From NCBI GenBank assembly GCA_037142675.1, contig JBAXAF010000004.1:326-64325 (forward strand): a stretch of 64,000 nucleotides of DNA. Direction: 5' to 3'. Of the stretch, positions 6,119 to 62,517 are shown piece after piece (positions within the stretch are counted from its first letter, which is position 1; every line of letters starts with the position of its first letter). The stretch is from Candidatus Berkelbacteria bacterium. GTDB taxonomy: Bacteria > Patescibacteriota > UBA1384 > XYA2-FULL-43-10 > CAINNR01. The notes below the pieces were generated by a model. That model saw only the letters and a program-made list of their open reading frames with translations. It did not search any database and was not told the DNA's origin. Both the position numbers and the translations under genes were made by a program.

Positions 6119-6907
6119 TTATTTCAGGTGATCCCAAATAAAATAAAACACAGCTCGCCAAGAATCGGCGATGTTTTTGTTTTCGTGAATCGACATATTC
6201 GAGTTCTTGTAGTCAAAGAGGACAAAAAGGTTATTGAAAATAACTATTGGTGCGGGAAACTCCTCTTTGTTAGGCATGTATTTAAGATTCGCAGGAGGTA
6301 AATTAAATCTTTCGACAATATAAGGATTGCGGATGTGTTCTTCAGGCGTTTTTCCGCGCTGACTTTTAGGTAAGATAGCTAGAATATTTACATCAAGCTT
6401 TTCAGCGGGCCTAACAAATTGTTTGAGAATTGGGTTTGATTCTGAGACAGTTTTGTACGAGTTCCCAAATATTAATACTTTGTTAAGTGGGGGTTTAAGC
6501 TCGGCGAATAATTGATAAAGTCGATCATAAAACTTTGTTATTTCATCAATTCCTCGATAATACTCCGTAATAGTTTGGCTTGTCACTCGATTATACTGTT
6601 CATCTATTTTTGGCAGTATTGAGCTAAGTTCCTGCTTTTTATTTGCCAATATTGACTCAAAAACAGACGGATCGGCGGGTTGATAAAGCGTTCTCTTGCC
6701 CTGCTCAATTGACAAGAGTAGTTTTTTTGAGATCAATCGATCGACATAATAATAAACAGCAGTTCTCTCAACGCCAGCGTTACGAGCTATCTCTGAAAAC
6801 GTTGCTTTGCCAAGTTCAACGGACGACAAATAAACCAAGACCTCAATTCGTTCTAGGCCAAGAGCTATCAACGGTTCGATGTCTTTTGAAGTGTCAAAAT
6901 ATTTCAC
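6119..6907 (-). CDS. TrmB-family HTH transcriptional regulator (paralog 1)
   Basis: N-terminal wHTH LGLERIEVLVYLSSVELGKATFSEIARNAGVERTAVYYYVDRL; low GC. Confidence 0.8.
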   Translation of the reverse strand: MKYFDTSKDIEPLIALGLERIEVLVYLSSVELGKATFSEIARNAGVERTAVYYYVDRLISKKLLLSIEQGKRTLYQPADPSVFESILANKKQELSSILPKIDEQYNRVTSQTITEYYRGIDEITKFYDRLYQLFAELKPPLNKVLIFGNSYKTVSESNPILKQFVRPAEKLDVNILAILPKSQRGKTPEEHIRNPYIVERFNLPPANLKYMPNKEEFPAPIVIFNNLFVLFDYKNSNMSIHENKNIADSWRAVFYFIWDHLK

Positions 6908-6966
6908 ATATCTATTATATCAATACTCCAAAACATGTCAAATATTTGGCAATAGTGTCTAAAGCA

Positions 6967-6995
6967 TTGACTAAAATAAGAATAAATGATACAAT
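6967..6995 (+). promoter_or_regulatory. Consensus sigma70 promoter TTGACT-17-TACAAT
   Basis: ttgactaaaataagaataaatgatacaat. Confidence 0.65.
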
Positions 6996-7080
6996 TCGGC
7001 GTTATGCTGAAGTCTCGGATTTTGGCATAAGGCAAAAAACACAAGGCTGGTTTGGTGCCTAACCAAACGGAGATAAATAG

Positions 7081-7674
7081 ATGATTAAGTTTCGCAACGC
7101 TGTTCTGGTGATGGTTGTGCTGGCGGATGTTTGCTCGGGTGTGCTGGCGCAAAGCGCCTTCATCCGCACTGAGGGTGCAGATGGTAAGGCACCGATGCAA
7201 ACGTTTGCCGCATGGGACGATACGTACGAAATCTGGCTCCAATCGTTCAACACCGATAGCTTCACTATTAGGGGTGGACCGCTCCAGAAGCTAGACAACG
7301 GGATGAAGTTGTCTGAGTGTTTGGCATGGACACCCAAAACTGGCGCGCTGGCGGTTAATGTCAACACCGGCAATGCCACGGTCTGCCAGAAGAGCAAGAC
7401 GTTCTGGGAGCTGGGCGCATATGCTCCGTTGAACGACGCGTCGAGTTGGGCGCTGGTGCTGTACGACGCTCGCCTCCTTGCACGGCTAACGCCCGAGCTG
7501 GCAATTGGTCCAGTCGCCTACGGCAAGTGGAGCGAGGGCGCCGGAAACGACTTCCTCTCCGCTGGCGTCGCCGTTGAGTACCGTGTGAAGGGCGGCTGTT
7601 TCTACGGCCGCTTGGCACGGAATCTCGTGTCTGATAAGAACGAGTTCCGGCTTCAATACGCCTTTGGCTTCTAG
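7081..7674 (+). CDS. GC-rich secreted OMP-like beta-barrel protein ending in aromatic F (cassette C)
   Basis: Signal peptide MIKFRNAVLVMVVLADVCSGVLAQSAF; C-terminus ...LQYAFGF (OMP C-terminal signature); terminator 7693-7733. Confidence 0.6.
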   Translation: MIKFRNAVLVMVVLADVCSGVLAQSAFIRTEGADGKAPMQTFAAWDDTYEIWLQSFNTDSFTIRGGPLQKLDNGMKLSECLAWTPKTGALAVNVNTGNATVCQKSKTFWELGAYAPLNDASSWALVLYDARLLARLTPELAIGPVAYGKWSEGAGNDFLSAGVAVEYRVKGGCFYGRLARNLVSDKNEFRLQYAFGF

Positions 7675-7747
7675 CCAACACAAGAACATCAATGCAAGCG
7701 CTGGGCCTTCGGGTCTGGCGCCTTTTTTTGTCCAAATTATGTAACCC

Positions 7748-7776
7748 TTGACAAACAAATATCACTAGGTTATAAT
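7748..7776 (+). promoter_or_regulatory. Consensus sigma70 promoter TTGACA-17-TATAAT
   Basis: ttgacaaacaaatatcactaggttataat. Confidence 0.65.
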
Positions 7777-7993
7777 TGCTCTACTATGGAATTCATACAT
7801 ATACAATCCATGCTCGGATACAAAATCAACCCAACTTTTCGTTGGGCCACCTTTAGTTTGTCTAACCGAGCTGATTCCTCATTTCATTATATAACGTGAT
7901 TTTTTAGAACTCATATATAACTTGAAGAACGTCTTGGTTAGCTAGACCAAGGCGTTTTTGTTTTAGCTATGTTCGTACACAATTTGAAAGGAA
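7777..7993 (+). promoter_or_regulatory. Long structured 5' leader with terminator-like hairpin; candidate riboswitch/attenuator
   Basis: Hairpins cccaacttttcgttggg and gaacgtcttggttagctagaccaaggcg followed by tttttgtttt; RBS aggaag before ATG. Confidence 0.4.
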
Positions 7994-9190
7994 GTGAGAA
8001 AGATGGCAAAAAAGACCGTGAGGTATTACCTGTTGTTGTCGTTGCTCTACCGATTTTCCAATACCTGCTTTGCCGCGACCTATGTAACATTTCTAATGAG
8101 CAGGGGAGGACTAAACCTGTTTCAGGTTAATATGGTCAATTTCATCTTCTTTGCGACGATGTTTTTGACCGAAATCCCGACCGGCGCCGTGGCCGACTGT
8201 TTCGGTCGCAAGCTGTCTTTTCTTATCTCTTGCTCGATTAACTGTGTTTCGTTGCTGGTGTATGCCCTGTCGCACACCTTCACTGGCTTTGCCACCGCCG
8301 AGGCAATGGGCGCAGTTGGGTCAACATTCTCGTCAGGCGCATTTCAGGCCTGGGTGGTTGATTCTCTTAACCACCACGGCTACCAGGAGGACTTTGGCAA
8401 GCTGTTCGCTCGCCAAAACCAGTTGGGCAACTTGGTCGGTATGGGTGCCGCCATCATTGGTGCACACCTGGCAACTATAAACCCGGCTTTCCCTTGGTTT
8501 CTGTCGGCTGCGTTTGTCTTCGCCACTGGTGTTGTCGCAATCTTTGTTATGAGGGAGGACTACCGGGAAAAAAGCAGTATCAATTTGTTGGCGACAGCCA
8601 AAGAGTTCGGCCGCAAGTTTGTGGTTAGCGCCCAAACAATCCGTGCTGGTGGGCCAGTAACACTAATGATGTTACTTGGACTGGTCTATTCCATTGGAGT
8701 CCAAGCCCCCAACATGCAGTGGCAGCCGTATTTCCGTAAGCACTTCGCCTCGGAAGCTGAATTGGGTTATTTGTGGGCTGGTGTCTCATTGGCGATCATC
8801 ATTGGCTCACAAATGTCAGCCATGATGCGTCGTGGGCCTGCGTTCGAGCGACTAGCGTTGATAGGAACCCAGGTTTCTATTGGCCTATTCATCGCGCTAG
8901 CGGGGATACAGTCGCCGTGGATGTTATCTGTTTTGTTTTACCTCATCCACGAGGCTGGGCGTGGGATGTTTTCACCGCTTAAGGATGCGTATCTCAACGA
9001 TGCCATCCAAAAGGAGGAGCGGGCAACCCTACTTTCCTGTGGTTCAATCTCTAGCCACATCGGTTCAATGGTTGGGCTAGTGATGTCTGGTCTTATGGCC
9101 AACAGGCTCTCAATCGCTCCCACCTGGATAGTGTCAGGGATTTTCCTTGTCGTCGGGACACTCGCAGTGTCTCGAATCAAGCGCACATGA
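7994..9190 (+). CDS. MFS-family transporter (cassette D)
   Basis: 398 aa, about 12 TM helices; GRK motif in loop 2-3; terminator gcggtctgc...gcagaccgc plus T-run at 9195-9228. Confidence 0.75.
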   Translation: MRKMAKKTVRYYLLLSLLYRFSNTCFAATYVTFLMSRGGLNLFQVNMVNFIFFATMFLTEIPTGAVADCFGRKLSFLISCSINCVSLLVYALSHTFTGFATAEAMGAVGSTFSSGAFQAWVVDSLNHHGYQEDFGKLFARQNQLGNLVGMGAAIIGAHLATINPAFPWFLSAAFVFATGVVAIFVMREDYREKSSINLLATAKEFGRKFVVSAQTIRAGGPVTLMMLLGLVYSIGVQAPNMQWQPYFRKHFASEAELGYLWAGVSLAIIIGSQMSAMMRRGPAFERLALIGTQVSIGLFIALAGIQSPWMLSVLFYLIHEAGRGMFSPLKDAYLNDAIQKEERATLLSCGSISSHIGSMVGLVMSGLMANRLSIAPTWIVSGIFLVVGTLAVSRIKRT

Positions 9191-9234
9191 CTCAGGCGGT
9201 CTGCTCCTCGCAGACCGCTTTTTTTGTCCCAAAT

Positions 9235-9990
9235 TTAGCCTTCGCCGACTTTTGCCTCGGTGGATTTCTCCCACAATAGAGTGTGGAAAATTTTCATTGC
9301 CTCGTATAGTTCTTTACTCTTAATAAGCATGCCAAAGTTCTCTTTTTGCGTGCTAAAAACACTAAGTTTTCCTGTGTCGTAGATTCCAATTCCAACCTCA
9401 ATTCTCATCCCATCTGGTCCCCATCGCAACTCTCGCAAGTACTCCAAGCCGTGTGATGATGTTTCATAGTTAATATCTGTATCTTTGTATCGAATAGTTT
9501 TGATAAATATTCCCTTTTCAATTCGAGCTTTGTCGATCTCGGCGATTGATCGTACCCCGCCAATCATTTGAGTTGCGCTCCCTGGCCAAATGTAGAGTGC
9601 CTCTTTTTTGCACTTCAACTCCTCGCGGATAACATTGCGCACCTGATCTGGCCCCTCAAAATAACTGACGCGTGGTTTGTGTGGGGTTAGATTAAATAAG
9701 TCTATAAAAGCCGGCAAACTATCTTTTAGTTTTGCCAATCTTTCATTCTCGAGCTCAATCAGGCGTTCTGGCGACTCAGCTTTGTAATTCATTCGGCCGT
9801 TTTTCTCGAACTTTGATATCAAACCCAGTTCAACTAGGTGATCAATAAAGTAATAAATTGATGTTCGTTTAATGCCGGCACGAGCAGCGATTGGAGTAAT
9901 GGTTGAACTGCCAAGCTCCAAAATAGCCAAGTAGACCTTGGCTTCCTTCTCGTCCAACCCAAATTTTACTAGTGTGTCCTCTTTGTTCAT
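9235..9990 (-). CDS. TrmB-family HTH regulator (paralog 2)
   Basis: FGLDEKEAKVYLAILELGSSTITPIAARAGIKRTSIYYFIDHL; start chosen at MNKEDTL (RBS gagga); ORF-track N-terminal 25 aa are GC-rich and atypical. Confidence 0.75.
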   Translation of the reverse strand: MNKEDTLVKFGLDEKEAKVYLAILELGSSTITPIAARAGIKRTSIYYFIDHLVELGLISKFEKNGRMNYKAESPERLIELENERLAKLKDSLPAFIDLFNLTPHKPRVSYFEGPDQVRNVIREELKCKKEALYIWPGSATQMIGGVRSIAEIDKARIEKGIFIKTIRYKDTDINYETSSHGLEYLRELRWGPDGMRIEVGIGIYDTGKLSVFSTQKENFGMLIKSKELYEAMKIFHTLLWEKSTEAKVGEG

Positions 9991-10156
9991 TCCTGTCATC
10001 CTCGGGCTTGCCTGCCCGCCTTTGGAGGGACCCGGGGATCCATTAATAGTTAAGACTTCGCACATATCGTCTAAAAAATCGTCGATAACACATTAATTCT
10101 AGCATAATTGGCACAAATTAGTCAAGTATTATTTGTCTAAATCATTGTCTAATATA

Positions 10157-10185
10157 TTGACAATATGCCAAATCAGTGATACAAT
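10157..10185 (+). promoter_or_regulatory. Consensus sigma70 promoter TTGACA-17-TACAAT
   Basis: ttgacaatatgccaaatcagtgatacaat. Confidence 0.65.
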
Positions 10186-10271
10186 GTGTTGTTACGATCG
10201 AAGTGGCAAACAAGCCAATCGCTCGTAAGGCAGATTACAACTTACGCCGGCGGGCTAACGCTAGGAATGAA

Positions 10272-10694
10272 ATGGATAACGATATTTGCGACTTTGGCTG
10301 TCCTGACGCCGTTGAGAACATCGCATTCAGTGGAAACACGTATTACGGCTTTGCTCGTTACGAAATCGCCACCGAGACCCGCGGGGGCATTCCTTACAAG
10401 ACTGAGGTTCGCGTCAACTATTTCCCCGTTGTTGATGGGCGCGTTCGGGTAGTAGATGTGGTTTTGATGCGATTCACCTGGGAGTCGTTTTACAAGACGC
10501 ATACGGTCGATGAAGCGCTGAAATCCAATTGGCCAGAAATATTGGCCGAGATGATCGCGGAGTCGCTGCCGGTTCGCATCGAGGAATTCTGCATCGCACG
10601 GCGCAAGAGTAGTGATCAGATGATACAGAATTTTAAGGAATGGCTGAAGTGTGAAAAGGGAATTGAGCTTTCGGAAGACCGCTCTGAACCGTAG
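10272..10694 (+). CDS. GC-rich hypothetical protein (operon E, gene 1)
   Basis: Start MDNDICDF with RBS aggaa; the ORF-track start 10176 would lie inside the promoter. Confidence 0.55.
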   Translation: MDNDICDFGCPDAVENIAFSGNTYYGFARYEIATETRGGIPYKTEVRVNYFPVVDGRVRVVDVVLMRFTWESFYKTHTVDEALKSNWPEILAEMIAESLPVRIEEFCIARRKSSDQMIQNFKEWLKCEKGIELSEDRSEP

Positions 10695-10719
10695 CAGGTT
10701 CGGAGCCGTTTCCGAGGGA
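10668..10719 (+). repeat. 52-nt hairpin-containing direct repeat, copy 1 (overlaps the 3' end of gene 1)
   Basis: ctttcggaagaccgctctgaaccgtagcaggttcggagccgtttccgaggga; about 92% identical to 11137-11188. Confidence 0.8.
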
Positions 10720-10756
10720 AATCAAGTGCTGGCGAGCCAAAACGCAAGGAAATAAC

Positions 10757-11131
10757 ATGAGTGGTACAGTTGACGATTTGATGGCAGCGCTTCGGATGAT
10801 CGACAGTCACTCGCAGCAGCTTGATGAAGAAAAAGAGACCCTGGCGTTGGCGCGGCGTGTCATCTCCGATCGTCACTTCCGGCAGCTGGTTCAGCGGCTG
10901 GAAACCGATCGGGTTGGATTGGCACGCGAGATCCTCGAAGCCGAGCAGATCCGCATCGACAACACCCCGATCGAAGATCTGTCGCTGTCGGTTCGGACAT
11001 ACAACGGCTTGAAGAAGAGTGGTATCAACACCCTCGGAGAGCTGGCTGAGTGCACGAAGGAGAAGTTGGCAGGCATCCGCAACTGGGGCCGCCGCTGCCA
11101 GGAAGAAGTAGATGAGATTCTGAAGAAATAG
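10757..11131 (+). CDS. Standalone RNA polymerase alpha-subunit C-terminal-domain-like protein
   Basis: IEDLSLSVRTYNGLKKSGINTLGELAECTKEKLAGIRNWGRRCQEEVDEILKK resembles the RpoA alpha-CTD helix-hairpin-helix. Confidence 0.6.
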   Translation: MSGTVDDLMAALRMIDSHSQQLDEEKETLALARRVISDRHFRQLVQRLETDRVGLAREILEAEQIRIDNTPIEDLSLSVRTYNGLKKSGINTLGELAECTKEKLAGIRNWGRRCQEEVDEILKK

Positions 11132-11136
11132 GAGTG

Positions 11137-11188
11137 CTTTCGGACGACCGCTCTGAACTGTAACAGGTTCGGAGCCGTTTCCGAGGGA
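11137..11188 (+). repeat. 52-nt direct repeat, copy 2
   Basis: ctttcggacgaccgctctgaactgtaacaggttcggagccgtttccgaggga. Confidence 0.8.
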
Positions 11189-11214
11189 GATAATCAGAAA
11201 GGTGGTTATGAAGT

Positions 11215-11625
11215 ATGTACATGTACCCTTTTGCATGGAGTGGCCAGGTATATAATCTGGGCGAAGGCGATGTCCAGATGCTGGTTGAGTTGTTGTGTGC
11301 AGGCCTAGACAAGGTGCTTGTAAACAACGATTACGAAGATGGCTCCAGGAAAGTGCGAATCTCGACTCACGACTATAAAAAGGCTAAATTCAACGACAAG
11401 CTGATCGAGCTCGAGTATACACTTCCCTGCAGGCATTTGCTTGTAGGACTGGGAAGTGGAGATTACCCGCGCTCCTTGCATCTTCCGCAAGCAATCGGTG
11501 GGGGGACCCTCGTCCGTAAGTCTCACGAGCCTGGCAAACCTATATACGTATGTCAGTTGGACATTGGAGACAGAAAGATAGAGCTGAAGGTGTGTTTCGT
11601 TGTGACTGAAGACAAGTTGAGATAG
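11215..11625 (+). CDS. GC-rich hypothetical protein (operon E, gene 3)
   Basis: RBS aaaggtgg; terminator ctccgggtcgtgattgattcggag plus T-run at 11660-11690. Confidence 0.55.
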   Translation: MYMYPFAWSGQVYNLGEGDVQMLVELLCAGLDKVLVNNDYEDGSRKVRISTHDYKKAKFNDKLIELEYTLPCRHLLVGLGSGDYPRSLHLPQAIGGGTLVRKSHEPGKPIYVCQLDIGDRKIELKVCFVVTEDKLR

Positions 11626-11750: not shown

Positions 11751-12104
11751 TTGGCAATGTTAAACAATATCAACCGCCTGCGGAAGGCGGGGGAAATCCA
11801 AAAAGTATTCAAATTCGGCAAATCAATACGGTCTGCTAATTTTTCTATTCGCTATAATCCGAACCGCGCAAGCAATAATCGCTTCGCTGTTGTTGTTGGC
11901 ACAAAGGTGGACAAGCGAGCAACTCGCAGAAACGCTATAAAACGGCTTGTAAGAGAAGTTATTCGCTTAAATATACAATCTATCCCGACAAGCTTTGATA
12001 TTGTTCTCACGGCTCACAAACTAGCAAATTGGCCGATAAAACTGGTCGATGTCCAGCCAGAATTAACAGAACTGTTAAAACAAATTCGAAACTCTAAATC
12101 CTAA
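11751..12104 (+). CDS. rnpA: RNase P protein component
   Basis: 117 aa with conserved FAVVVGTKVDKRATRRNAIKRLVRE. Confidence 0.9.
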   Translation: MAMLNNINRLRKAGEIQKVFKFGKSIRSANFSIRYNPNRASNNRFAVVVGTKVDKRATRRNAIKRLVREVIRLNIQSIPTSFDIVLTAHKLANWPIKLVDVQPELTELLKQIRNSKS

Positions 12105-12205
12105 ATCCTAAACAAATCCAAATGATCCAATTTTCAAATATTTTAAACATTAAGACATTTGAATTTTGATATTGTTTAGAAATTAGATATTAGAATTTAG
12201 AAATT
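12095..12205. repeat. AT-rich palindromic intergenic repeat (family member)
   Basis: Nearly identical to 20583-20690: ...caaatgatccaattttcaaatattttaaacattaagacatttgaattttgatattgtttag... Confidence 0.7.
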
Positions 12206-12448
12206 ATGAAAAAAATCTTAATAAAAATCATTGAATTTTATCAGCGAACACTTTCGCCTGATCATGGATTTTTTTCATATAAATATCCAGCAGGATATTG
12301 CAAATATCATCCTGATTGCTCTGAATATTGTAAGCAGGCAATAGAGAAAAAAGGCGCTGTGAGGGGGATTGCGCTCGGAGCGTGGCGTGTGCTACGATGT
12401 AATCCATGGAGTTCTGGGGGGTACGATCCGGTGAATCATGAATCATGA
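12206..12448 (+). CDS. yidD: Membrane protein insertion efficiency factor YidD
   Basis: 80 aa, cysteine-rich YidD fold. Confidence 0.85.
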   Translation: MKKILIKIIEFYQRTLSPDHGFFSYKYPAGYCKYHPDCSEYCKQAIEKKGAVRGIALGAWRVLRCNPWSSGGYDPVNHES

Positions 12449-12509
12449 ATTGTGAATAATGGGCTCAAAACCATAATTCTTAATTCATAATTCTTAATTC
12501 AAGGAAAAA

Positions 12510-15367: not shown

Positions 15368-15400
15368 AAAAAAGCCCTGGCGTGACAACAACCAGGGTGG
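15368..15400. terminator. Bidirectional intrinsic terminator
   Basis: aaaaaagccctggcgtgacaacaaccaggg; T-run on the minus strand. Confidence 0.65.
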
Positions 15401-15423
15401 GCACTCTTGGCTTTCGAACCAGG

Positions 15424-16293
15424 TCAGGCAGACCTGACCGTGGCAGCATCCTCGGGCTGGCCAATGATCTGGCGGTACTTGTCGCGTAGCTCCGGCGACA
15501 ACCTCTCTGTCATGCTGATAGCGTCTCGACGGCCGCACAGGCTATCGTGGTGAGTGATGTGGGCGGCAACCAGTTTTTCGACTGCCGCCTCACGTTTGGC
15601 CGGTGGGAAGAGCGGGATCATGCACTCGGCATAATCGAGCCGGTAACTGGCGCTGCATGCTTCGTGGAAAAGCGCACGAAGACGCTTCTGGTCTCTAATG
15701 AAACCGAGCTCGGAGCTGAAACCGTTGACATCGCGGTAGGTGTACTGCGATCGGTGATGTTCAGCCGGGTGCATATCCATCTCGAGCAGGGAGAAGAACA
15801 GCCTCTCAAATGCTGCGTGTCGCAACCGCTTCGAGTCGATGGCGCGGATCGACCGCAGTGTTTCTTCGACGTTCCAGAAGCCATACCGGCAAAGCTGCAC
15901 GTTGGCGGCGTCACGGTCCTTTTTTGGGAGACCGACGATTGCTTTTCGCACTATGCGAATGTCGGAGTTCCGACGTGCGAGGTACTTCGGCATCCAGGTC
16001 ATAACCTCGTCGGTGTTCAGGTGACGACCAACGACCTCGAGATCGCGAAGCATGCCGTCGTAGTTGTAGCCATTTTCAACCACAATGGCTACAACTTTGC
16101 CTGCCTGCCCAGGTTGGAGCTCCTTTGGCAGTAGCGGAATGGCGGTGATGAGCGCAATCCTGAGCTGTTGGTGGCTGATCATCTTATCGATGACACCTGT
16201 TACCAGCTCCACCTTTCGCTCGGCGCTCATGTCTTGGAAGCAGTAGCTTAGCTGGCGCTCATATTCGTCCCCCCCAGATGTGGCTGACGGCAC
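15424..16293 (-). CDS. GC-rich hypothetical protein (island F)
   Basis: 289 aa; overlaps the upstream gene by 35 nt. Confidence 0.55.
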   Translation of the reverse strand: MPSATSGGDEYERQLSYCFQDMSAERKVELVTGVIDKMISHQQLRIALITAIPLLPKELQPGQAGKVVAIVVENGYNYDGMLRDLEVVGRHLNTDEVMTWMPKYLARRNSDIRIVRKAIVGLPKKDRDAANVQLCRYGFWNVEETLRSIRAIDSKRLRHAAFERLFFSLLEMDMHPAEHHRSQYTYRDVNGFSSELGFIRDQKRLRALFHEACSASYRLDYAECMIPLFPPAKREAAVEKLVAAHITHHDSLCGRRDAISMTERLSPELRDKYRQIIGQPEDAATVRSA

Positions 16294-16798
16294 AGTTGTA
16301 CCTGGCCATGACTAAGCAATGCAGCCGGTCTTCTGAGCGGTATTTGCTATTGGTCAGGCTTGAAGCATCCCTGGCCTGGTAATCGTAGCCGCCGAGGATA
16401 GTCAGCTCGTGAATTCGTCTTCCGACCTGTTTGCGCAGATGTTTTGTTTCGATCTTCCGGCACCAGTTGATCGCCGCCCAGAGTAGGGCCGCTGATCTGT
16501 GGTTATCGCTGCAAATTTCGACCTCAGCGATAAACTGGTTACAGGCTGCAAGTCGAAGATTATCAGCCTTGTCGCCGAGAAGTGCAGCAATTCTTGAGAG
16601 TGATTGCTCGGACTGGTGGATAGTGCGCCCGGTCATCCCGCCACCAGGTGTGATAATCACCATCCAGTGGATTAAGGACTTGGCGCATACCATCAACTGG
16701 TGATAAGTCAGACTGTGTCCGAGTTGGGTCACCAGGGTCACGGCCGCGTCAATATCACCAGCGATGATCAGAGCAGACAACAATTGCAAGGATCTCAT
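16259..16798 (-). CDS. GC-rich hypothetical protein (island F)
   Basis: 179 aa; RBS gagagg; minus-strand promoter TTGATT-17-TATAAC at about 16842-16870. Confidence 0.55.
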   Translation of the reverse strand: MRSLQLLSALIIAGDIDAAVTLVTQLGHSLTYHQLMVCAKSLIHWMVIITPGGGMTGRTIHQSEQSLSRIAALLGDKADNLRLAACNQFIAEVEICSDNHRSAALLWAAINWCRKIETKHLRKQVGRRIHELTILGGYDYQARDASSLTNSKYRSEDRLHCLVMARYNCAVSHIWGGRI

Positions 16799-16919
16799 TG
16801 TAGGTTCCTCTCACAAATCGGGTTGATTGTGAAACACCTAAGTTATATCAGCAAGCAATATTTTAATCAAATTTAATAAAAAAAACGCGGCGAAGGAACT
16901 CGCCGCGTGTACTCTTTGC

Positions 16920-18578
16920 TCAGATGTATCCGCTTTTTAGCCGGAAGTACATTCTGGCACTCACGTAACGGAAGAGGCGGACAGCTCGCGCCAGCCTGAC
17001 TCGTTGTGACGGTGAACTCATCAGAAATCCTGCTACTGCATGCTCGTCTTCGGCTGTTGCCAGCTTTTCGATGGCGTAGGCATGCAGCCCCTTTGGATGT
17101 ATGGGGTAGAGCCACTTGCTTTTGAAACAAATAGCTTCGGTGATGATTGGAATATAAGCTGGCGCAAGCTCAGATTGCCGGCTTATTTTGATGCCTGTGA
17201 CTGTCGGCATCAGCCCATGCCAGTTGATTGAACGGACGACCCAGTCGCGCTCATTGGCGCTGACGTTATCCAGTAACCCAGCCAGCAGGACAGGACCAAT
17301 ACGCTGGATGGCGGCGCGGTACTCGACTTCTGACGCGCCTTTGCAGAATGTCATTGCGGCGCCAACATGTTCGGCCCCAAATCGGCGTTCAAGAGCCCCA
17401 AAACTCATTGTGTGTGCCAAAGGCTTCAGCATTGCCGGCACAATCAGCGGGTTTCTGGACAACTCTGGAATGATCTCCTGTTCGGGACCGAAGATTCCCA
17501 TTTGTGGGTACCTTGGCAAAAGCAATTCTTGGGTCGCCATCCGCGCTTCTGACCGGTCGATGCGATTGCAGTTTCTGATCACCTCGCCAGCATCAACTTC
17601 TTCCAGTGCAACCGCCCAGAGGATGATCATCTTGCCGCCTTGATTCCCCCGATAGAGCGCATCAGGTGCGCCCATCTCGAAGGCCTCGACTACCCAGTGT
17701 CTGTCTGTCGGCGACCTCCATGTCTGGATGGCTTCTTGCAGTTCTCTCTCCTCAATCGACTCGATCTCGTTTTGTTTTGACAGCGCCAAGATCGCCGACA
17801 CCTCGGTTACCGTGCCGCGCCGGCCAAGTAATACCGAAATGACGGGAAGCAGGAAACCAGCCATTGGGAGACCGTGGTTTGCTACCAGGTTCGCAGCCTC
17901 GTGAATAAGTAGCGGCTGTCGTCCCCGACGATCGATCGTCTCTGCCTCGTAGAAAAGGCTAATGATCTGCCGTTCGTCCAGCCCTTCTACCCGAAATCGG
18001 CTGGCAAGCGCAGAGATGTAATCGTAGCCGAGCTCGGCGGTGTGGTAGCCCCACCAGAACCGGTCTTGAGCGTGTTCGTATTGTGGGTCATGATACTCTG
18101 GCAGTACGCCACGTCGGGAGGTCTCAGAAGGTGGAGGAGCCAAGTCCATGCCCATTTTGATCTCGGCTAGCCCGAACTTGACCGCTCCATCGATGTAGGA
18201 AGTCAGTCGGTTCGTGCCATAAGGATATTCCATATGTAGCACAAACTCGGTGGTCTCGCAGACCAGGTCGTAATTTCCGGCCTTAATCTGCCTGCCAATC
18301 TTCACCGAACAGTAATCATCAAGCGCAAGTTTGAACTTCGCCTGATACTCTATTAGCCTGGCCAGTGTTGGGTAGCCAATACGGGCAGCAATGTGCTTGA
18401 GCAGTTTGACGTATGCCCAAAGGCGCACATCTCCCTTTTCGGTGGTCACTTCGCACTCGTCATCACACTTTGTGACCTTTGGCTGAAGGCGTCGGACCTG
18501 CTGCAAGAGCTTCAAGCTCTCCAACAGAAACGGCTCAAGTTTGCCACTAATCTCCAAAAGTGCAACCCATGGTCTCAT
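16920..18578 (-). CDS. GC-rich large hypothetical protein (island F)
   Basis: 552 aa; minus promoter TTGACA-16-TAAGAT at 18609-18636; terminator cgcggcgaaggaactcgccgcg at 16888-16910. Confidence 0.6.
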   Translation of the reverse strand: MRPWVALLEISGKLEPFLLESLKLLQQVRRLQPKVTKCDDECEVTTEKGDVRLWAYVKLLKHIAARIGYPTLARLIEYQAKFKLALDDYCSVKIGRQIKAGNYDLVCETTEFVLHMEYPYGTNRLTSYIDGAVKFGLAEIKMGMDLAPPPSETSRRGVLPEYHDPQYEHAQDRFWWGYHTAELGYDYISALASRFRVEGLDERQIISLFYEAETIDRRGRQPLLIHEAANLVANHGLPMAGFLLPVISVLLGRRGTVTEVSAILALSKQNEIESIEERELQEAIQTWRSPTDRHWVVEAFEMGAPDALYRGNQGGKMIILWAVALEEVDAGEVIRNCNRIDRSEARMATQELLLPRYPQMGIFGPEQEIIPELSRNPLIVPAMLKPLAHTMSFGALERRFGAEHVGAAMTFCKGASEVEYRAAIQRIGPVLLAGLLDNVSANERDWVVRSINWHGLMPTVTGIKISRQSELAPAYIPIITEAICFKSKWLYPIHPKGLHAYAIEKLATAEDEHAVAGFLMSSPSQRVRLARAVRLFRYVSARMYFRLKSGYI

Positions 18579-18684
18579 GGTTGGCCTCTATTCTTGAGTA
18601 TCGCACTCATCTTAGCTCATGATTGTTTTATGTCAATAAAAAAAGGCGGGTATTAGCCGCCGTTAGTATTTGTGCAAGCCAACT

Positions 18685-19503
18685 CTACTGTTGGCGTGGG
18701 TCCCTGACAGGCATGACTCCTTGGTTTGACAGACCGTGGTCTACAGTGTGGACCAGCGGGGAGCCGCCGGAGAGCGGTGACATGAGCCATGCGATATGGT
18801 TGGCCACGTCTTCAGCCTTGGTGTTCACCCCTAATGGAACGGCGTGTGGCACGGCCTCGTATAATGAGCCGAAGTTCTTAACTCCCTTCGCCGCGATGGT
18901 GTTGATCGGCCCAGCGTCCAGCAGGTGGATGCGCACATTGGACTTTCCCATGTCGCCGGCAAGGTAGAGCGCTATTGAATCCAGTAGAGATTTGGCACTC
19001 GCCATTTGCCAGTAGTCCTCGATGTACTTCTCGGCACCCAGGAGGAAAGTCATCGCCACTCCCACAGCACCGTCGTTTAGCCGCCGGCCGAACCCCATGG
19101 CACCTGGGCAGAGTAAGGCTTTCGACATCCAGTGGAAGGAAAGGGCATTGAGACTGAGTGTCTCGATCCATTCCTCGGTGGTCATTGAGAGGAAGTTTCG
19201 TCCTTCCTGCTGAATGCTTGCAGGAGCAGCAGCCACGCTGTGGAGGTATCCATCAAGCATGATCCCTCTGTCTTGCAGTTCGCAGCGCAGGCGGACAAAA
19301 TCATCCTCGATCGAGAAATCACACGGGAGGATGATCTCGCCATCCTGGCGGAATTTTTCCGCTCTTTCAACAATGCTCGGATGGCATGTGATTACGGGCC
19401 TTCCTCCGTGGTTGCGAACTGCTTCAACGGTAGCCGTTCCGATGCCGCCGCGTAGGCCGACGCCGGAAACAAGTATGGTTCGTCCTTCAAGTAATCGTGA
19501 CAC
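18685..19503 (-). CDS. FabI-like enoyl-ACP reductase / SDR family (island F)
   Basis: ILVSGVGLRGGIG...Y-x6-K (YWQMASAKSLLD)...DAGPINTIAAKG...VDHG aligns with FabI; GTG start with RBS aagaggtg; promoter TTGACA-18-TATTTT at 19550-19579. Confidence 0.7.
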   Translation of the reverse strand: MSRLLEGRTILVSGVGLRGGIGTATVEAVRNHGGRPVITCHPSIVERAEKFRQDGEIILPCDFSIEDDFVRLRCELQDRGIMLDGYLHSVAAAPASIQQEGRNFLSMTTEEWIETLSLNALSFHWMSKALLCPGAMGFGRRLNDGAVGVAMTFLLGAEKYIEDYWQMASAKSLLDSIALYLAGDMGKSNVRIHLLDAGPINTIAAKGVKNFGSLYEAVPHAVPLGVNTKAEDVANHIAWLMSPLSGGSPLVHTVDHGLSNQGVMPVRDPRQQ

Positions 19504-20597: not shown

Positions 20598-20690
20598 ATT
20601 CTAAACAAACCCAAATGATCAAATTTTCAAATATTTTAAACATTAAGACATTTGAGTTTTGATATTGTTTAGATATTAGAATTTAGAAAT
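20583..20690. repeat. AT-rich palindromic intergenic repeat (family member)
   Basis: Near copy of 12095-12205. Confidence 0.7.
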
Positions 20691-20705
20691 TTCCCCGGAG
20701 GGGAC

Positions 20706-38880: not shown

Positions 38881-38897
38881 GGATTTGTTTTATTTTT

Positions 38898-49312: not shown

Positions 49313-49363
49313 TATTTACTTGCTCTATAGAAAAAACGCCCCAGAAATGGTGGCGTTTTTTGG
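49297..49363 (+). repeat. 67-nt direct repeat copy 1 (rplS 3' end plus terminator)
   Basis: agccgcagaaaaataatatttacttgctctatagaaaaaacgccccagaaatggtggcgttttttggt. Confidence 0.9.
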
Positions 49364-50848: not shown

Positions 50849-50901
50849 TATTTACTTGCTCTATAGAAAAAACGCCCCAGAAATGGTGGCGTTTTTTTGG
50901 T
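50833..50901 (+). repeat. 67-nt direct repeat copy 2
   Basis: Identical to copy 1 apart from one extra T in the T-run. Confidence 0.9.
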
Positions 50902-51556: not shown

Positions 51557-51664
51557 TTTGCCCACATCCTTTGGTATGCGCAGATGGTTCCGCGGCAATT
51601 ATAGCACTTAAATTTGAATTGTGAACCAAGAATTATGGATGATGGGATAATTAGTTACGTTGTA

Positions 51665-51693
51665 TTGACAAATCAATGCAACATATGTTACAA
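51665..51693 (+). promoter_or_regulatory. Promoter TTGACA-17-TTACAA(T) giving a leaderless transcript
   Basis: ttgacaaatcaatgcaacatatgttacaat; ATG at 51704 lies about 3 nt after the predicted TSS. Confidence 0.5.
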
Positions 51694-51703
51694 TTTAATC
51701 ACT

Positions 51704-51958
51704 ATGCAACATAACGATTACATCTCAACAATTGAAGCATCTAGCATTCTTGGGTTGGACCGAACTCAGGTATTCCGCCTGATCCAGAGTGGAAAAATTC
51801 CGGCTGTAAAAATCGGCCGTAATTTCGCAATTAAAAAATCAGACCTGGGAATTTACGGTGGAGAAGTATCAACAAAAGAAAAAAAGAACATCGAACTATC
51901 GGTAGACAGAGTTTTTGCGGAATATGGTGACGTGATCAAAAAATTGGGAGAGGAGTGA
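51704..51958 (+). CDS. HTH (excisionase/MerR-like) antitoxin candidate
   Basis: ISTIEASSILGLDRTQVFRLIQSGKIPAVKIGRNFAIKKSDL; 4-nt overlap (ATGA) with the downstream toxin. Confidence 0.65.
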   Translation: MQHNDYISTIEASSILGLDRTQVFRLIQSGKIPAVKIGRNFAIKKSDLGIYGGEVSTKEKKNIELSVDRVFAEYGDVIKKLGEE

Positions 51959-52377
51959 TCTACAAAATCTCAATCGAAGAGGTTGAGCTTATTGCTCACC
52001 GAATGGCAAAAAATATAATGGAGTGGGATGAGCCGATTCCCGATTTTTCAACTCGCTATCCGAATGTTCTGGAGAGCTGCTTGGCTGTGCCGTTTCAATC
52101 GTTTGGCCGCAAAGATTTGTATTCTACTTTGGTCAAAAAGGCGGCAATTTTGTTTTATTTAATGATAAAAAACCATCCGTTTCAAAACGGAAATAAACGG
52201 GTTGCAGTGACCACACTTTTCACCTTCTTGGGAAAAAATGACAAGTGGCTGAAAGTTGATAATCAAGAACTCTATAATTTTGCTGTTTGGGTCGCATCTT
52301 CACCAGCAGAATTTCAGGCAGAAATTCTCGCCGCCGCTGAGAAATTTATTAAAAGAAATTTAGTTAGTTCAAGCTAA
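51955..52377 (+). CDS. doc: Doc/Fic-family toxin
   Basis: HPFQNGNKRVAVTTLFTFL matches the Doc motif HxFx(D/N)GNKR. Confidence 0.8.
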   Translation: MIYKISIEEVELIAHRMAKNIMEWDEPIPDFSTRYPNVLESCLAVPFQSFGRKDLYSTLVKKAAILFYLMIKNHPFQNGNKRVAVTTLFTFLGKNDKWLKVDNQELYNFAVWVASSPAEFQAEILAAAEKFIKRNLVSSS

Positions 52378-56124: not shown

Positions 56125-56154
56125 TTGACAAAATATGACGAGTTTTGCTATAAT
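56125..56154 (+). promoter_or_regulatory. Consensus promoter TTGACA-18-TATAAT for TrmB paralog 5
   Basis: ttgacaaaatatgacgagttttgctataat. Confidence 0.6.
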
Positions 56155-56193: not shown

Positions 56194-56928
56194 ATGGAAA
56201 CTTTGGAGATTCTAAAATCAATTGGATTAAATGACAATGAAAGCAAGGTTTACCTAGCTGTCCTTGAACTCGGTGCATCGACGGTTTTGCCCATCTCAAA
56301 AAAGTCCGGAATAAAACGGACCTATTGTTACGATATTTTGGAAAGCTTGCTAAAAAAGGGTTTTGTTAGTCACTTTAGTAAAAATGGTCGCCGTCGCTAC
56401 CTGGCTGCTGACCCAAAGCAAATCGAGGCGTTGTTAGAAAATAAATTAAACCGATTTTCAGAAGCTTTGCCACAACTGCGGTCAATTTATAATTCATCGC
56501 CAGAAAAACCAACAATTCGATTTTTTGAGGGTAAGGAAATCAAAAATATTTATGAAATGTTGCCGTCAGCGAAATACATTGATTCCATAGCCTCCCCTGA
56601 GTACATTTACCAATATCTTGGCAATTACTTTGATGAAATTGTAAAATTAATAGCTAAAAAGAAGGTAGCTGTTCGGGAAATTGTGCCAGAGAAAAATAAG
56701 GATGCTGGCTATATTAAGAATTTTCAAAAGCCAGACGAGGAGCTTAGATTTTTACCAAAAGAAGTCCAGTTGTCGACGGATATAATAATTTTTGATGACA
56801 AGGTTGCACTGATTTCATTTGCAAAAAAGGTTCACGCGGTGTTAATTGAAAGTTCGAGTATTGTGGAGACTCAGCGCTATATGTTTGATTTGATCTGGCA
56901 GATGGCAAAAAGTCCGTCTTCGAGGTAG
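56194..56928 (+). CDS. TrmB-family HTH regulator (paralog 5)
   Basis: IGLNDNESKVYLAVLELGASTVLPISKKSGIKRTYCYDILESL. Confidence 0.8.
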   Translation: METLEILKSIGLNDNESKVYLAVLELGASTVLPISKKSGIKRTYCYDILESLLKKGFVSHFSKNGRRRYLAADPKQIEALLENKLNRFSEALPQLRSIYNSSPEKPTIRFFEGKEIKNIYEMLPSAKYIDSIASPEYIYQYLGNYFDEIVKLIAKKKVAVREIVPEKNKDAGYIKNFQKPDEELRFLPKEVQLSTDIIIFDDKVALISFAKKVHAVLIESSSIVETQRYMFDLIWQMAKSPSSR

Positions 56929-59978: not shown

Positions 59979-60055
59979 GGCCCGGTCGTCTAGTGGCCTA
60001 GGATACTTGGTTCTCATCCAAGAGATCATGGGTTCGACTCCCATCCGGGCTACCA
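59979..60055 (+). tRNA. tRNA-Glu (anticodon CTC)
   Basis: ggcccggtcgtctagtggcctaggatacttggttctcatccaagagatcatgggttcgactcccatccgggctacca; hairpin plus T6 terminator at 60058-60090. Confidence 0.8.
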
Positions 60056-60112
60056 TGAAAAGTGCATCACTTCGGTGATGCTTTTTTCATGGTAAATGGA
60101 AGTCGAACGGGA

Positions 60113-60208
60113 AGGGGTCGGGAAACGGGAGTTTCCCGCAGAGGAAGATAATAGAAACCGTGAGTTTCTATAAGCCGAAGGCGTGTGAGCCTCCCATCCG
60201 GGCTACCA
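60113..60208 (+). repeat. tRNA-linked structured element, copy 2 (ends in an exact copy of the tRNA-Glu 3' 18 nt)
   Basis: ggggtcgggaaacgggagtttcccg...atagaaaccgtgagtttctat...ctcccatccgggctacca; terminator ctgaagttttgcttcag plus T-run at 60213-60238. Confidence 0.8.
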
Positions 60209-60271
60209 AAAAATTCTGAAGTTTTGCTTCAGGATTTTTTGTTTTGATCAAATTGAGCTAGAATAGAGTGG

Positions 60272-61771
60272 ATGAAAAAATTTTTTCAGGCGCCTAATTT
60301 TAGAAGTTGGCAGTTTTGGCTAAAGATTTTTTTGGTCGTTCTAATTATTGCTGGCGGGATCGCTGGTATATTGTTGATTAAAAAACACCGAGTAGCGGCA
60401 CCAGCCGCTGAGATTAAAGCTCCTGTTGAAGTTGCTGTTACCCCAATTGCTCCACCAGAAGAAGCAAAAAAAGCTGTTATCGCTGCGCCTCCTAAGGTTA
60501 AGACTTCTGGAAAAACTTCAACTAAGGCCAATTCAGATGGATCAAAGACGGTTACATCTGCCACTGGACCAGTTAATTCTGCCAACACAGCTGTTGCTGC
60601 CGCGGCTGGGCCTTCGGCTGGTATTGCCGGTATTCATTATATCGACCAAACAGGTTCGCATGCTGATTTGGGTGATCAACTTAAAACGTATATGTCGAAT
60701 AACTTATTAGTTAAAGGCGAAGTTAGCAGTATGTACTCGATAATTCTGCAAAACGCCGGAGACACCGGCTGGGCCGGACTTTATTCCGGGTCGTATAATC
60801 AAGACGCGAACGGCCAAATAACTTCCGCCTGGGGCTATATAACGCTAAACAGCTACTATTATGAAGGTAATCCATACTTCCTTGACTACATGAAACTAAT
60901 TTTGTCGCACGAATATGGCCACCACTACTCCTTGTATTACAAATGGATAGTTTGGCAGATTCCTTCTGGTCAACGCTTCCCCGATTCTTATTATTCCGTT
61001 CGGCCGCTGACAAAGTCAGGAACAGCTCCTGATTACTCACTGGGTTGGGCCAACTGCGATGCGGAAATAATTGCGGAGGATTACTCTTATCTCTATTCCG
61101 GTTATGGCTATCATGGCATGGCAGCGACCTACGGTTATCCATCTGCTGGGACAAAAACTTGGTTGGTTAATGAGCCAGCCGGGTCATCTGCTTCAGCGCC
61201 AGCGTCAGACAGCGCACCAACAGTCTCAATTACCGCACCAGCCAGTGGCGCAACTGTTTCTGGAACGGTGCCATTTTCAGCCACGGCTTCTGATGATAAT
61301 GGTGTAACAAAGGTGAGCTTTTACATTGACAACAATTTATTAGTTGAAGACTCCGTCGCACCATATGAAACGTCATTCAATTCTGCAAGTTATGGCAATG
61401 GAGTTCATTCTTTGCGGGCTAGAGCAACTGACACGGCTGGACAAACTGCTGATTCGACAGTCTCTATTATCATTAATAACGCGACGACCGACACGGAAAA
61501 CCCGACGGTTACCATTGGCGACCCAGCTGACAATCCTCATGCTTGGGCAAATGGTAATTTACACATTGCAGTTACGGCAACAGACAACGTTGCGGTGCAG
61601 AAAATCGAGATCTATATTAATGATCAACTAGCTCTAACTGAGAACTCAGGATCAGTTTCTGCTGTTTGGAATTATAATGATGCTCCAGCCGGAACCTACA
61701 CACTAAAAGCAAAAGCCTACGATGCTTCCGGCAACACCGCCGAAACTAGCATTGTGGTAAACAAAAGTTAG
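60272..61771 (+). CDS. Membrane-anchored putative zinc metalloprotease (HExxH) with C-terminal Ig-like repeats
   Basis: N-terminal TM; Pro/Ala-rich linker; LSHEYGHH; two repeated modules of about 90 aa. Confidence 0.6.
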   Translation: MKKFFQAPNFRSWQFWLKIFLVVLIIAGGIAGILLIKKHRVAAPAAEIKAPVEVAVTPIAPPEEAKKAVIAAPPKVKTSGKTSTKANSDGSKTVTSATGPVNSANTAVAAAAGPSAGIAGIHYIDQTGSHADLGDQLKTYMSNNLLVKGEVSSMYSIILQNAGDTGWAGLYSGSYNQDANGQITSAWGYITLNSYYYEGNPYFLDYMKLILSHEYGHHYSLYYKWIVWQIPSGQRFPDSYYSVRPLTKSGTAPDYSLGWANCDAEIIAEDYSYLYSGYGYHGMAATYGYPSAGTKTWLVNEPAGSSASAPASDSAPTVSITAPASGATVSGTVPFSATASDDNGVTKVSFYIDNNLLVEDSVAPYETSFNSASYGNGVHSLRARATDTAGQTADSTVSIIINNATTDTENPTVTIGDPADNPHAWANGNLHIAVTATDNVAVQKIEIYINDQLALTENSGSVSAVWNYNDAPAGTYTLKAKAYDASGNTAETSIVVNKS

Positions 61772-62517
61772 ATCTTTTTTCCGATTCCCCAAAGTATGTC
61801 AAAAATATTTTTAAAAACCTTAACCAGGTTTTTATTTTTGATTTCAATCACCATTGGCTCTGTTGCCGAATGGAGAACTAAAATGTCATCGCCAAAAATA
61901 TTGAAGTTTCCCAAGTCAGCCATCTTTTTTTCGATTAGCCGATATTCATATAACTTTGGAAGACTATTTTTTAATTTCATTTCGAAATCGTTTTCATTAA
62001 AAATCAACATTTGCCATTTAATCATTCTTTCTTGTTGGATTTTCAGAAATTTGCTGGTTAGTTTTCCCATATGCTCTTGCCAAAGAGGCCCGATTGACCC
62101 GGCGATAAAATCTGTTGTTCCAGTTGGCAACTTAGAATAAGCATCCAGCCAAAATCGGCGATAGGACTCCAGCCCTTCATAAATGGTTATTTCAGGTGAT
62201 TCTGCTTGGATCATCTTTTTTAATTCAGGCACTAAGGTTTTTGCTAGTTGAAATTCCTCAGCAGCGATATCAAGCAACTTTTCTGGATCAAGCGATTGGA
62301 AGTACTTAATTTTTGATTTCTCAAAACTAAAGACTAGTTTTTTGCTAATAAGTTTTTTTAATGATTCATAAACCACACTGCGATGCAGCTGAGTTTTTTC
62401 AATGATTTTTCCTGCGGAAGTTGTACCGATTTCTAAAAGGGCAGTGTAAGTTTTGGCTTCACTGCTAGTTAGGTGTAATTGTTCCAAGCGCGATCTAATT
62501 TGCTCGTTAATTGCCAT
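61768..62517 (-). CDS. TrmB-family HTH regulator (paralog 6)
   Basis: LHLTSSEAKTYTALLEIGTTSAGKIIEKTQLHRSVVYESLKKL. Confidence 0.8.
   Translation of the reverse strand: MAINEQIRSRLEQLHLTSSEAKTYTALLEIGTTSAGKIIEKTQLHRSVVYESLKKLISKKLVFSFEKSKIKYFQSLDPEKLLDIAAEEFQLAKTLVPELKKMIQAESPEITIYEGLESYRRFWLDAYSKLPTGTTDFIAGSIGPLWQEHMGKLTSKFLKIQQERMIKWQMLIFNENDFEMKLKNSLPKLYEYRLIEKKMADLGNFNIFGDDILVLHSATEPMVIEIKNKNLVKVFKNIFDILWGIGKKI

Follow-up and report, generated by a model that had tools for sequence, protein, structure and literature searches.

Two kinds of TrmB-family regulator from Thermococcales are the closest described relatives of the proteins considered here. TrmBL2 (TK0471 / PF0496; PDB 5box, 5bpd and 5bqt) consists of three parts in about 250-260 residues; it is described as one abundant protein of chromatin that binds DNA largely without sequence specificity and represses globally (PMC3031468, PMC4877046). 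TrmB, TrmBL1 and Tgr (PDB 3qph) are local regulators that lie beside transporter operons, and they combine the winged helix-turn-helix (wHTH) of PF01978 and a coiled coil with a sugar-binding C-terminal region. Here we describe six TrmB-family genes in a 64,000-nucleotide stretch of a Candidatus Berkelbacteria genome (hereafter the window, meaning this whole stretch), in which GC-rich cassettes of foreign composition alternate with native DNA of lower GC content. On balance we think it probable that these genes are old, native paralogs of the TrmBL2 type, which act as local, sequence-specific regulators of their divergently transcribed and mostly imported neighbours in insertion hotspots. To our knowledge, transcription regulation in Patescibacteria (the candidate phyla radiation, CPR) has hardly been studied, and we found no open-access paper in which TrmB and this group, under either of its names, are both mentioned.

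All six open reading frames (ORFs) that a sequence-only reading of the window had assigned to the TrmB family are present (T6119 to T61768; Table 1) and match PF01978 with 42.8-63.2 bits (E 2e-17 to 5e-11), against a Pfam gathering score of 25.6 bits for membership. They can be aligned end to end, and the alignment contains both common features described for them in that reading, an N-terminal wHTH, with a EAKVYLALLELG-type helix (E-A-K-V-Y-L-A-L-L-E-L-G), and a C-terminal motif, which takes the form F-x-x-[IL]-[IL]-W. A profile of 47 homologs aligns with TrmBL2 over its full length (query 9-242 on residues 12-262 of 5box, E 5.8e-10); on TrmB (3qph) the same profile covers the N-terminal half only, residues 7-155, and has no match in the C-terminal sugar-binding region, the region by which TrmB, TrmBL1 and Tgr differ from the six proteins. 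A Pfam scan of the six ORFs (E<=0.01) found no family besides N-terminal HTH types. The AlphaFold2 model of T56194 (pLDDT 93.6) has TrmBL2 chains as its eight best Foldseek matches in the PDB (E 3e-15 to 2e-13; best 5bpd), followed by TrmB, and its C-terminal domain, searched separately, resembles NucT and Zucchini, both of the PLD fold. The predicted architecture of the six proteins is that of TrmBL2, namely a wHTH, a coiled coil and a PLD-like C-terminal domain, without the sugar-binding subdomain. Indeed, they have the three parts, the length of about 260 residues and the end-to-end alignability of the TrmBL2-like subfamily, and an assignment to TrmB sensu stricto (TrmB/TrmBL1, about 340 residues with a sugar-binding effector domain) was rejected because they are 244-262 residues long and have no such domain. 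Homologs occur throughout Patescibacteria and also in DPANN archaea, and the six proteins are new members of a known regulator family. Their sequence identity to TrmBL2 is only about 20%, and unlike that single protein they form a set of six divergent paralogs within 64 kb of a bacterium, and every one of them has a promoter region and a neighbour of its own.

Pairwise identity among the six is only 20-37% (T34315 shares 30% with its nearest paralog, T31690), which argues that they are old paralogs rather than recent copies and that there was no recent spread within the genome. Furthermore, the six genes are of native composition, with a dinucleotide distance (delta*) of 48 to native DNA versus 123-130 to the loci of the donor lineage described below. 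Ancient, and native in both composition and signature, the TrmB paralogs did not arrive with the foreign DNA.

The native gene context of the window (dnaN-dnaA, rpmH, rnpA-yidD-yidC, type IV pilus genes, T4SS-pilin genes, ComFC and ribosomal proteins) is typical of Patescibacteria. A two-state GC hidden Markov model (HMM) distinguishes 13 high-GC segments of 0.50-0.61 GC from a background of 0.38-0.41; they make up 24.6% of the window, and composition switches 26 times in 64 kb. The GC-rich segments pooled for signature comparison (4675-6101, 7093-7722, 8176-9218, 10245-11535, 15374-19466, 22425-23034, 30324-34051 and 36373-38033) have, even minus the DnaA segment, a delta* of 27-43 to the donor-lineage loci L098, L099 and L100 and of 120-125 to native DNA, with 87-221 to other GC-rich loci. 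Cassettes with and without an adjoining TrmB gene behave alike in this respect; the 4.1-kb island, for instance, lies at a delta* of 23 from L100 and 136 from native DNA, and the GC-rich island of a close relative, L102, shows the same donor-like dinucleotide signature. The second dnaA of the window is intact (GC 0.54; GC at third codon positions, GC3, 0.64) and shares only 33% identity with the native dnaA (2431-3882). Its product shares 60-70% identity with DnaA encoded in the chromosomes of bacteria with 59-69% GC that have the gene order Lactamase_B_2-dnaA-dnaN-recF, one of which is labelled Armatimonadota. At the syntenic site of L095, a more distant relative, there is likewise a GC-rich dnaA xenolog (10001-11374, GC3 0.81), which nests in the donor clade and is 87% identical to P0126. 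Together, the coherent signature suggests one predominant donor lineage. About a quarter of the region carries the signature of a single Armatimonadota-labelled lineage, a complete dnaA included, and this side result, a lead to the donor and possibly the host of an uncultivated Berkelbacteria lineage, may matter more than the question of the regulators. The cassettes had been taken from the start to be foreign, and the 13 HMM segments, the donor signature and independent assemblies (see below) bear out that they are both real and foreign.

The claim that every one of the six genes directly abuts a GC-rich cassette stands for four of them. T6119, T9235 and T31690 are each the only gene in an islet of low GC content, about 1 kb long, that has GC-rich DNA to its left and right (the HMM boundaries around T31690 fall at 31544/31545 and 32454/32455), and T34315 has GC-rich DNA on one side only, upstream. 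The claim is weak for the other two, since the divergent neighbour of T61768 (62686-63180) is mildly GC-rich (0.49) and was not called by the HMM, and T56194 has upstream merely a stretch of about 450 bp with 0.45-0.52 GC. Flanking by GC-rich DNA on both sides was found for 3/6 TrmB genes versus 0/39 others (hypergeometric p about 0.0014, in a post hoc test). Two of the paralogs, T6119 and T9235, lie in the 7.6 kb between rpmH and rnpA, as had been noticed from the sequence.

The same sites can be followed in related genomes. L102, whose core proteins are 87-92% identical, has the same rpmH|rnpA island, with orthologs of T6119 (91%), h203 (82%; GC3 0.80 in both genomes) and h197 (80%) in the same place; the MFS transporter is 60% identical and h196 38%. 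The island of L102 contains two extra GC-rich genes and lacks T9235 together with its three-gene cargo, and L102 is also without the 4.1-kb island between GH1 and DUF7544. L107 and L108 contain T9235 orthologs (94% and 86%) that adjoin divergent MFS alleles (60% and 56%). In L095, the HSP20|ComFC interval holds an HTH_17-Fic pair, versus two TrmB and four GC-rich genes in the window, and a different TrmB gene with a divergent GC-rich gene lies between NDK and MraY, which are neighbours in the window. Between the window and L102, synonymous divergence (dS) of MFS and h196 is saturated and nonsynonymous divergence (dN) is high, which indicates allelic replacement, and h203 and h197 are under purifying selection (dN/dS about 0.19). 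As judged from these comparisons, the TrmB genes are conserved residents of hypervariable hotspots (rpmH|rnpA and HSP20|ComFC, the most complex two of the insertion sites) in which the cargo turns over. This resembles the hypervariable islands of naturally transformable bacteria, with their conserved hotspots, fast cargo replacement, competence-type genes and lack of an integrase, and the allelic replacement is also alike (MFS 60% versus about 90% for the core). Unlike in such islands, conserved regulators are interleaved here inside the hotspots, and most of the cargo appears to come from one coherent, phylogenetically distant donor lineage. An integron or other site-specific cassette system was considered and rejected, as there was no Pfam match to an integrase or transposase among the called genes of the contig and a repeat search found no repeat family bounding the GC-rich segments.

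The MFS gene is itself a mosaic, with a breakpoint near 8233 at a GC boundary: the first 240 nt or so are low in GC and 82% identical to L102, and the GC-rich remainder has no nucleotide similarity to L102 over 8234-8817 and 66% identity over 8818-9225. This looks like an allelic replacement within the gene. At the T2SSE|pilin site, the window (22425-23034) and L102 (17798-18427) contain unrelated GC-rich single-gene cassettes with no TrmB gene nearby, and the site is a cassette-swapping hotspot independent of the regulators. An HTH_17-Fic pair also occurs in the window (51614-52377), at a site different from that of L095 (5737-6407); the two proteins are 67% and 83% identical.

Five of the six TrmB genes diverge from their upstream neighbour across 134-195 bp of AT-rich DNA. 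Within the rpmH|rnpA island, each gene is preceded by a near-consensus sigma-70-type promoter of its own and followed by a hairpin that resembles an intrinsic terminator. Eleven promoters in the window match the consensus at 11 or more of 12 positions, and eight of them precede TrmB or cassette genes, that of T56194 (56125-56154) with 12/12 matches. The T6119 control region is 94% identical to that of L102, compared with 73-83% for coding DNA, and the T9235 control region has conserved blocks in L107 and L108. There are exactly two copies of the repeat TTAGWCA-N5-TTAGWCA in the window, one in the control region of T6119 and one in that of T9235, and each lies between or over both -35 boxes; 100 shuffles contained none. 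The divergent layout, the back-to-back promoters and the conserved operator-like repeats (candidate operators) would suit a putative divergon, and the promoters and repeats speak for a local and sequence-specific control of the divergent cargo. T6119 is divergent from an operon that ends in an MFS transporter, much as TrmB, TrmBL1 and Tgr lie beside transporter operons. ATTGACA, which is enriched upstream of TrmB genes elsewhere, was rejected as an operator, being the extended -35 box and hence a promoter signal.

Two further observations concern these control regions. Just upstream of the ribosome-binding site of h197, at 7050-7068, there is a palindrome or hairpin GTTTGG-N7-CCAAAC, and the corresponding palindrome of L102, upstream of h198, reads GCTTGG-N7-CCAAGC, so that both arms have changed and symmetry or pairing is kept. 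Exactly at the ancestral start codon of T9235 there is a 75-nt GC-rich in-frame insertion (9991-10065), which is not in L107 or L108; T9235 may consequently have an N-terminal extension of 25 residues (ORF 9235-10065), or translation may restart at 9990.

The regulation that we consider probable would work as follows. The TrmBL2-type family is greatly expanded in Patescibacteria, where a member is typically a single-gene unit divergent from its neighbour, and each paralog is most likely a local, sequence-specific regulator, probably a repressor. It would bind at a site between its own promoter and the back-to-back promoter of the divergent neighbour, or over both of them. That neighbour is a GC-rich gene from the Armatimonadota-like donor lineage in four cases and, weakly, in a fifth. 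The hotspots are long-lived, with rapid replacement of cargo and conservation of the TrmB genes and their promoter regions. The adjacency itself would probably have two reasons: the TrmB genes themselves reside in plasticity zones, and a foreign ORF that comes to lie behind a strong, TrmB-controlled native promoter would be expressed under regulation and therefore kept. This reading draws on the family and fold, on native versus foreign composition, on the conservation pattern and on the promoter layout, and it predicts DNA binding at the repeats, repression and an advantage in retention. If TrmBL2-like paralogs do switch acquired genes, they would offer a way to study the domestication of foreign DNA by ultra-small symbionts.

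A possible, though somewhat unlikely, alternative is that the adjacency is a by-product of layout and density, without any functional link: GC-rich insertions would be frequent between transcription units, and TrmB genes would be short, non-essential single-gene units with permissive flanks. Much of what speaks for it also weighs against local regulation of imported genes. Within the window, a GC-rich neighbour gene was found for 4/6 TrmB genes versus 15/41 among the remaining native genes (p=0.20 in Fisher's test, 0.17 by label permutation), and 38% of the other native genes also abut a cassette. T56194 and T61768 have no clear GC-rich neighbour, and 7/13 GC-rich segments have no adjoining TrmB gene; cassettes without one nearby stand between core genes at GH1|DUF7544, L27|L19 and T2SSE|pilin, the last of which swaps cassettes without any TrmB. 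Against local regulation there are two further points. The TTAGWCA repeat was found post hoc, and motifs of this type show no enrichment in front of the TrmB genes of the other loci, so that a candidate for the shared operator motif envisaged by the sequence-only reading is present in the T6119 and T9235 regions but was not seen upstream of TrmB elsewhere. Furthermore, homologs of the MFS cargo are all labelled Patescibacteria, so that not all GC-rich cargo comes from a donor outside the CPR, and a single donor for all of it was rejected on account of this gene.

A test for enrichment in related genomes was part of the original proposal, and we compared 80 loci (1.18 Mb) around T56194 relatives from GTDB species genomes, all of them Patescibacteria or mislabelled Patescibacteria bins. 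In these loci, segmented by GC in the same way as the window, 21/102 TrmB genes versus 62/933 other genes have a GC-rich neighbour (odds ratio, OR, 3.6, p=1.6e-5), and permutation within loci gives 10.5 expected versus 21 observed. However, TrmB genes also differ in layout, with a divergent upstream neighbour in 83% of cases versus 29% of other genes, and several controls reduce the excess. When only genes that diverge from their upstream neighbour are compared, the shares are 21.6% versus 8.5% (p=0.006), which lowers the OR from 3.8 to 3.0; among singleton genes only, the values are 20.6% versus 11.0% (p 0.24). GC3 thresholds give an OR of 1.9-3.3 with p 0.008-0.05, and p 0.05-0.3 after orientation control, and part of the GC-rich neighbours elsewhere are conserved native genes such as YebC and RecQ. 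A test of adjacency by 200 bp distance found no enrichment (7/102 versus 52/933); it misses neighbours that lie farther away, and the gene-neighbour test was used in its place. A small independent set seeded on T9235 goes in the same direction (3/10 versus 11/100, p=0.12). An excess is thus found in the relatives, but it shrinks under orientation control and with GC3, and the window alone does not reach significance. Against a mere effect of layout, the excess survives orientation control when the upstream divergent neighbour itself is scored as GC-rich (11/74 TrmB genes versus 7/235 others, p=0.0006), sandwiching on both sides is confined to TrmB genes, and the control regions, which have shared repeats between both -35 boxes, surpass coding DNA in conservation. 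Together, the association of TrmB genes with GC-atypical DNA across Patescibacteria is real but moderate and is partly explained by the single-gene divergent layout; in the lineage of the window the association with foreign DNA is real, and it may be functional.

It is unlikely, though conceivable, that TrmB genes and their GC-rich neighbours move jointly as blocks among related Berkelbacteria, perhaps taken up by natural transformation and integrated through recombination within conserved flanking DNA. The sequence-only reading had similarly proposed that the regulators travel with the cassettes or mark hotspots for their insertion. Such blocks would account for the joint gain and loss of TrmB genes and neighbours among the window, L102, L095 and L107/L108, and the window also contains ComFC and genes for type IV pili. 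In comparison with L102, moreover, h203, T6119 and h197 have a dS of 0.62, 0.73 (with a dN of 0.046 for T6119) and 0.77, about half that of dnaA and yidC (1.35), with other core genes from 1.1 to saturated. However, the core gene rnpA also has a low dS (0.61), and dS is noisy for genes of 100-260 codons. The blocks are not bounded by an integrase, a transposase or flanking repeats, and paralogs of such low mutual identity did not spread recently within the genome. The native composition of the TrmB genes next to cargo of donor composition implies that any block was assembled inside Berkelbacteria. Of the earlier proposal, then, the joint gain and loss and the lower dS of the h203-T6119-h197 block remain, whereas ancient paralogs of native composition, together with the segments and the T2SSE|pilin hotspot that have no TrmB gene, do not fit it.

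A more far-reaching version of local regulation, which we regard as improbable, is that the TrmBL2-like family acts as a gatekeeper: it would repress genes captured from a host or neighbour, fixed behind strong native promoters that lie back to back with a TrmB promoter, until they are needed, and the TrmB genes would serve as recombination anchors for the exchange of cargo. If true, AT-rich genomes would have, for GC-rich DNA, a system functionally equivalent to xenogeneic silencing, and the coherent donor signature, which extends to a whole dnaA, would indicate which bacterium is the physical host of this Berkelbacteria lineage.

Xenogeneic silencing proper, in which TrmBL2-like proteins would coat GC-rich foreign DNA, non-specifically or by composition, and silence it in an AT-rich genome, is very improbable. 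It would be in agreement with the match to TrmBL2 in full-length architecture and fold and with the embedding of TrmB genes in the two largest foreign islands, and TrmBL2 is described as a protein of the chromosome that represses globally and is also conserved in some bacteria (PMC3031468). However, there are many highly divergent paralogs here and not one abundant protein, each TrmB gene has its own conserved, specific-looking control region, most cassettes have near-consensus promoters and terminators that argue for expression, over half of the GC-rich segments have no TrmB gene nearby, and the cargo is under purifying selection. Strong cargo promoters, many divergent paralogs and purifying selection on cargo are thus better explained by regulated expression than by blanket silencing. 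The known silencers H-NS, MvaT, Lsr2 and Rok are alike in being DNA-binding proteins associated with compositionally foreign DNA, but they have an unrelated fold, act globally and target AT-rich DNA in GC-richer genomes. In the window, by contrast, proteins with the TrmB/TrmBL2 fold and an apparent specificity for operators occur with foreign DNA that is rich in GC, and strong promoters are found on the cassettes; membership in this silencer type was rejected.

Finally, that the GC-rich stretches are an assembly or binning artefact, chimeric joins of a low-GC and a high-GC organism, might come to mind for a MEGAHIT metagenome contig with so many composition switches, but it is practically excluded, since the same DNA occurs in a 67.7-kb metagenome contig (ENA ERZ27300140 k141_938509 = CAZGMR010000009.1, NCBI MAG GCA_964526775.1), the gene order across identical low-GC/high-GC junctions is repeated by other assemblers in other samples (JGI 3300021074 and 3300021473, Logan SRR7053514 and SRR7053317), L102 has orthologous GC-rich genes at the same site (dS 0.6-0.8, dN/dS about 0.19), and the GC boundaries fall on ORF boundaries with promoters and terminators.

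Table 1. Regulator genes, cassettes, control regions and repeats in the window.
Feature	Position	Strand	Remarks
T6119, TrmBL2-like regulator	6119-6907	-	262 aa; PF01978 E 4.9e-11; alone in low-GC islet, rpmH-rnpA island
T9235, TrmBL2-like regulator	9235-9990	-	251 aa; PF01978 E 9e-14
T31690, TrmBL2-like regulator	31690-32442	+	250 aa; PF01978 E 5.6e-14; GC-rich segments on both sides
T34315, TrmBL2-like regulator	34315-35094	+	259 aa; PF01978 E 7e-16; start per gene caller 34333; 19 nt overlap with ComFC start
T56194, TrmBL2-like regulator	56194-56928	+	244 aa; PF01978 E 2e-17; heads the row PIG-L / AAA_28 / PIG-L
T61768, TrmBL2-like regulator	61768-62517	-	249 aa; PF01978 E 4e-11
h196 and h203, GC-rich cassette pair	4675-6101 (h196 4714-5304; h203 5433-6044)	+	each with own promoter and terminator
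h197 (secreted-type orphan) and MFS transporter	7081-9190 (h197 7081-7674; MFS 7994-9190)	+	divergent from T6119; Pfam MFS_1
h172, alpha-CTD, h136	10176-11625 (alpha-CTD 10757-11131)	+	GC-rich cargo divergent from T9235
h279 and h107	30279-31546 (h279 30707-31546)	-	GC-rich cargo divergent from T31690
ParA-like ATPase and h268	32494-34137 (ParA-like 32494-33270; h268 33331-34137)	-	GC-rich; divergent from T34315, convergent with T31690
rpmH (L34)	4044-4178	+	ORF translation; left border of 7.6-kb island
rnpA	11751-12104	+	right island border; 92% identical to L102 gene with Ribonuclease_P Pfam match
4.1-kb GC-rich island, four genes including FabI-like SDR	15374-19466	-	no adjoining TrmB; absent from L102 and L105
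Second dnaA (xenolog), GC-rich	36598-37995	+	no adjoining TrmB
T6119/h197 divergent control region	6908-7080	.	back-to-back promoters 6941-6914 minus (12/12), 6967-6995 plus (10/12)
Repeat TTAGTCAATGCTTTAGACA in T6119 control region	6956-6974		
T9235/h172-alpha-CTD-h136 control region	9991-10175	.	-35 boxes 10125-10120 minus, 10157-10162 plus
Repeat TTAGACAATGATTTAGACA in T9235 control region	10134-10152		between both -35 boxes
h279/T31690 control region	31547-31689	.	back-to-back promoters 31619-31591 minus, 31626-31654 plus
h268-ParA row/T34315 control region	34138-34332	.	TrmB and cargo promoters back to back
Eight promoters preceding TrmB or cassette genes	4643-4671, 5334-5362, 6914-6941, 7748-7776, 10157-10185, 31626-31654, 51598-51625, 56125-56154		11-12 of 12 consensus matches
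CTAAATTCTAATTTCTAAAC...GTTTAGAAATTAGAAATTAG repeats	763-892, 12076-12205, 20572-20691, 29691-29810, 35795-35856, 38757-38892, 40925-40983, 42105-42242		

Cargo that can be identified with Pfam, NCBIfam and PADLOC comprises the MFS transporter, the FabI-like SDR, the ParA-like ATPase, the full-length second DnaA and the stand-alone alpha-CTD; the remainder are orphans, and no defence system was found in these scans of the cargo. BLAST of the GC-rich proteins against one another and against the 80 loci gave zero matches, and the cargo is therefore not one gene family. For h279, which is nearly an orphan, 13 related clusters were found in a set of 1.84 billion representatives. A literature search on GC islands in Berkelbacteria found nothing relevant.

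The alpha-CTD gene in the cargo beside T9235 encodes a stand-alone RNA polymerase alpha C-terminal domain of 124 residues (PF03118), to which rpoA models match via their C-terminal 100 or so positions only, and the protein is 80% identical in L107. In the same cargo, a 56-nt repeat with 93% identity follows two consecutive genes (10667-10722 and 11136-11191).

Other repeats lie elsewhere in the window. A perfect 65-nt direct repeat (49297-49361 and 50833-50897), which consists of the end of rplS and its terminator, surrounds a 472-residue ORF (49430-50848) and has the appearance of a junction left by a recent insertion or duplication. Native genes are followed by a family of intergenic repeats, CTAAATTCTAATTTCTAAAC...GTTTAGAAATTAGAAATTAG, which are AT-rich, palindromic internally and some 50-125 nt long (Table 1), and a second small repeat family, TGAATTATGAATTAAGAATTATGG, occurs at 12432-12502, 30215-30280, 46463-46533 and 51615-51645.

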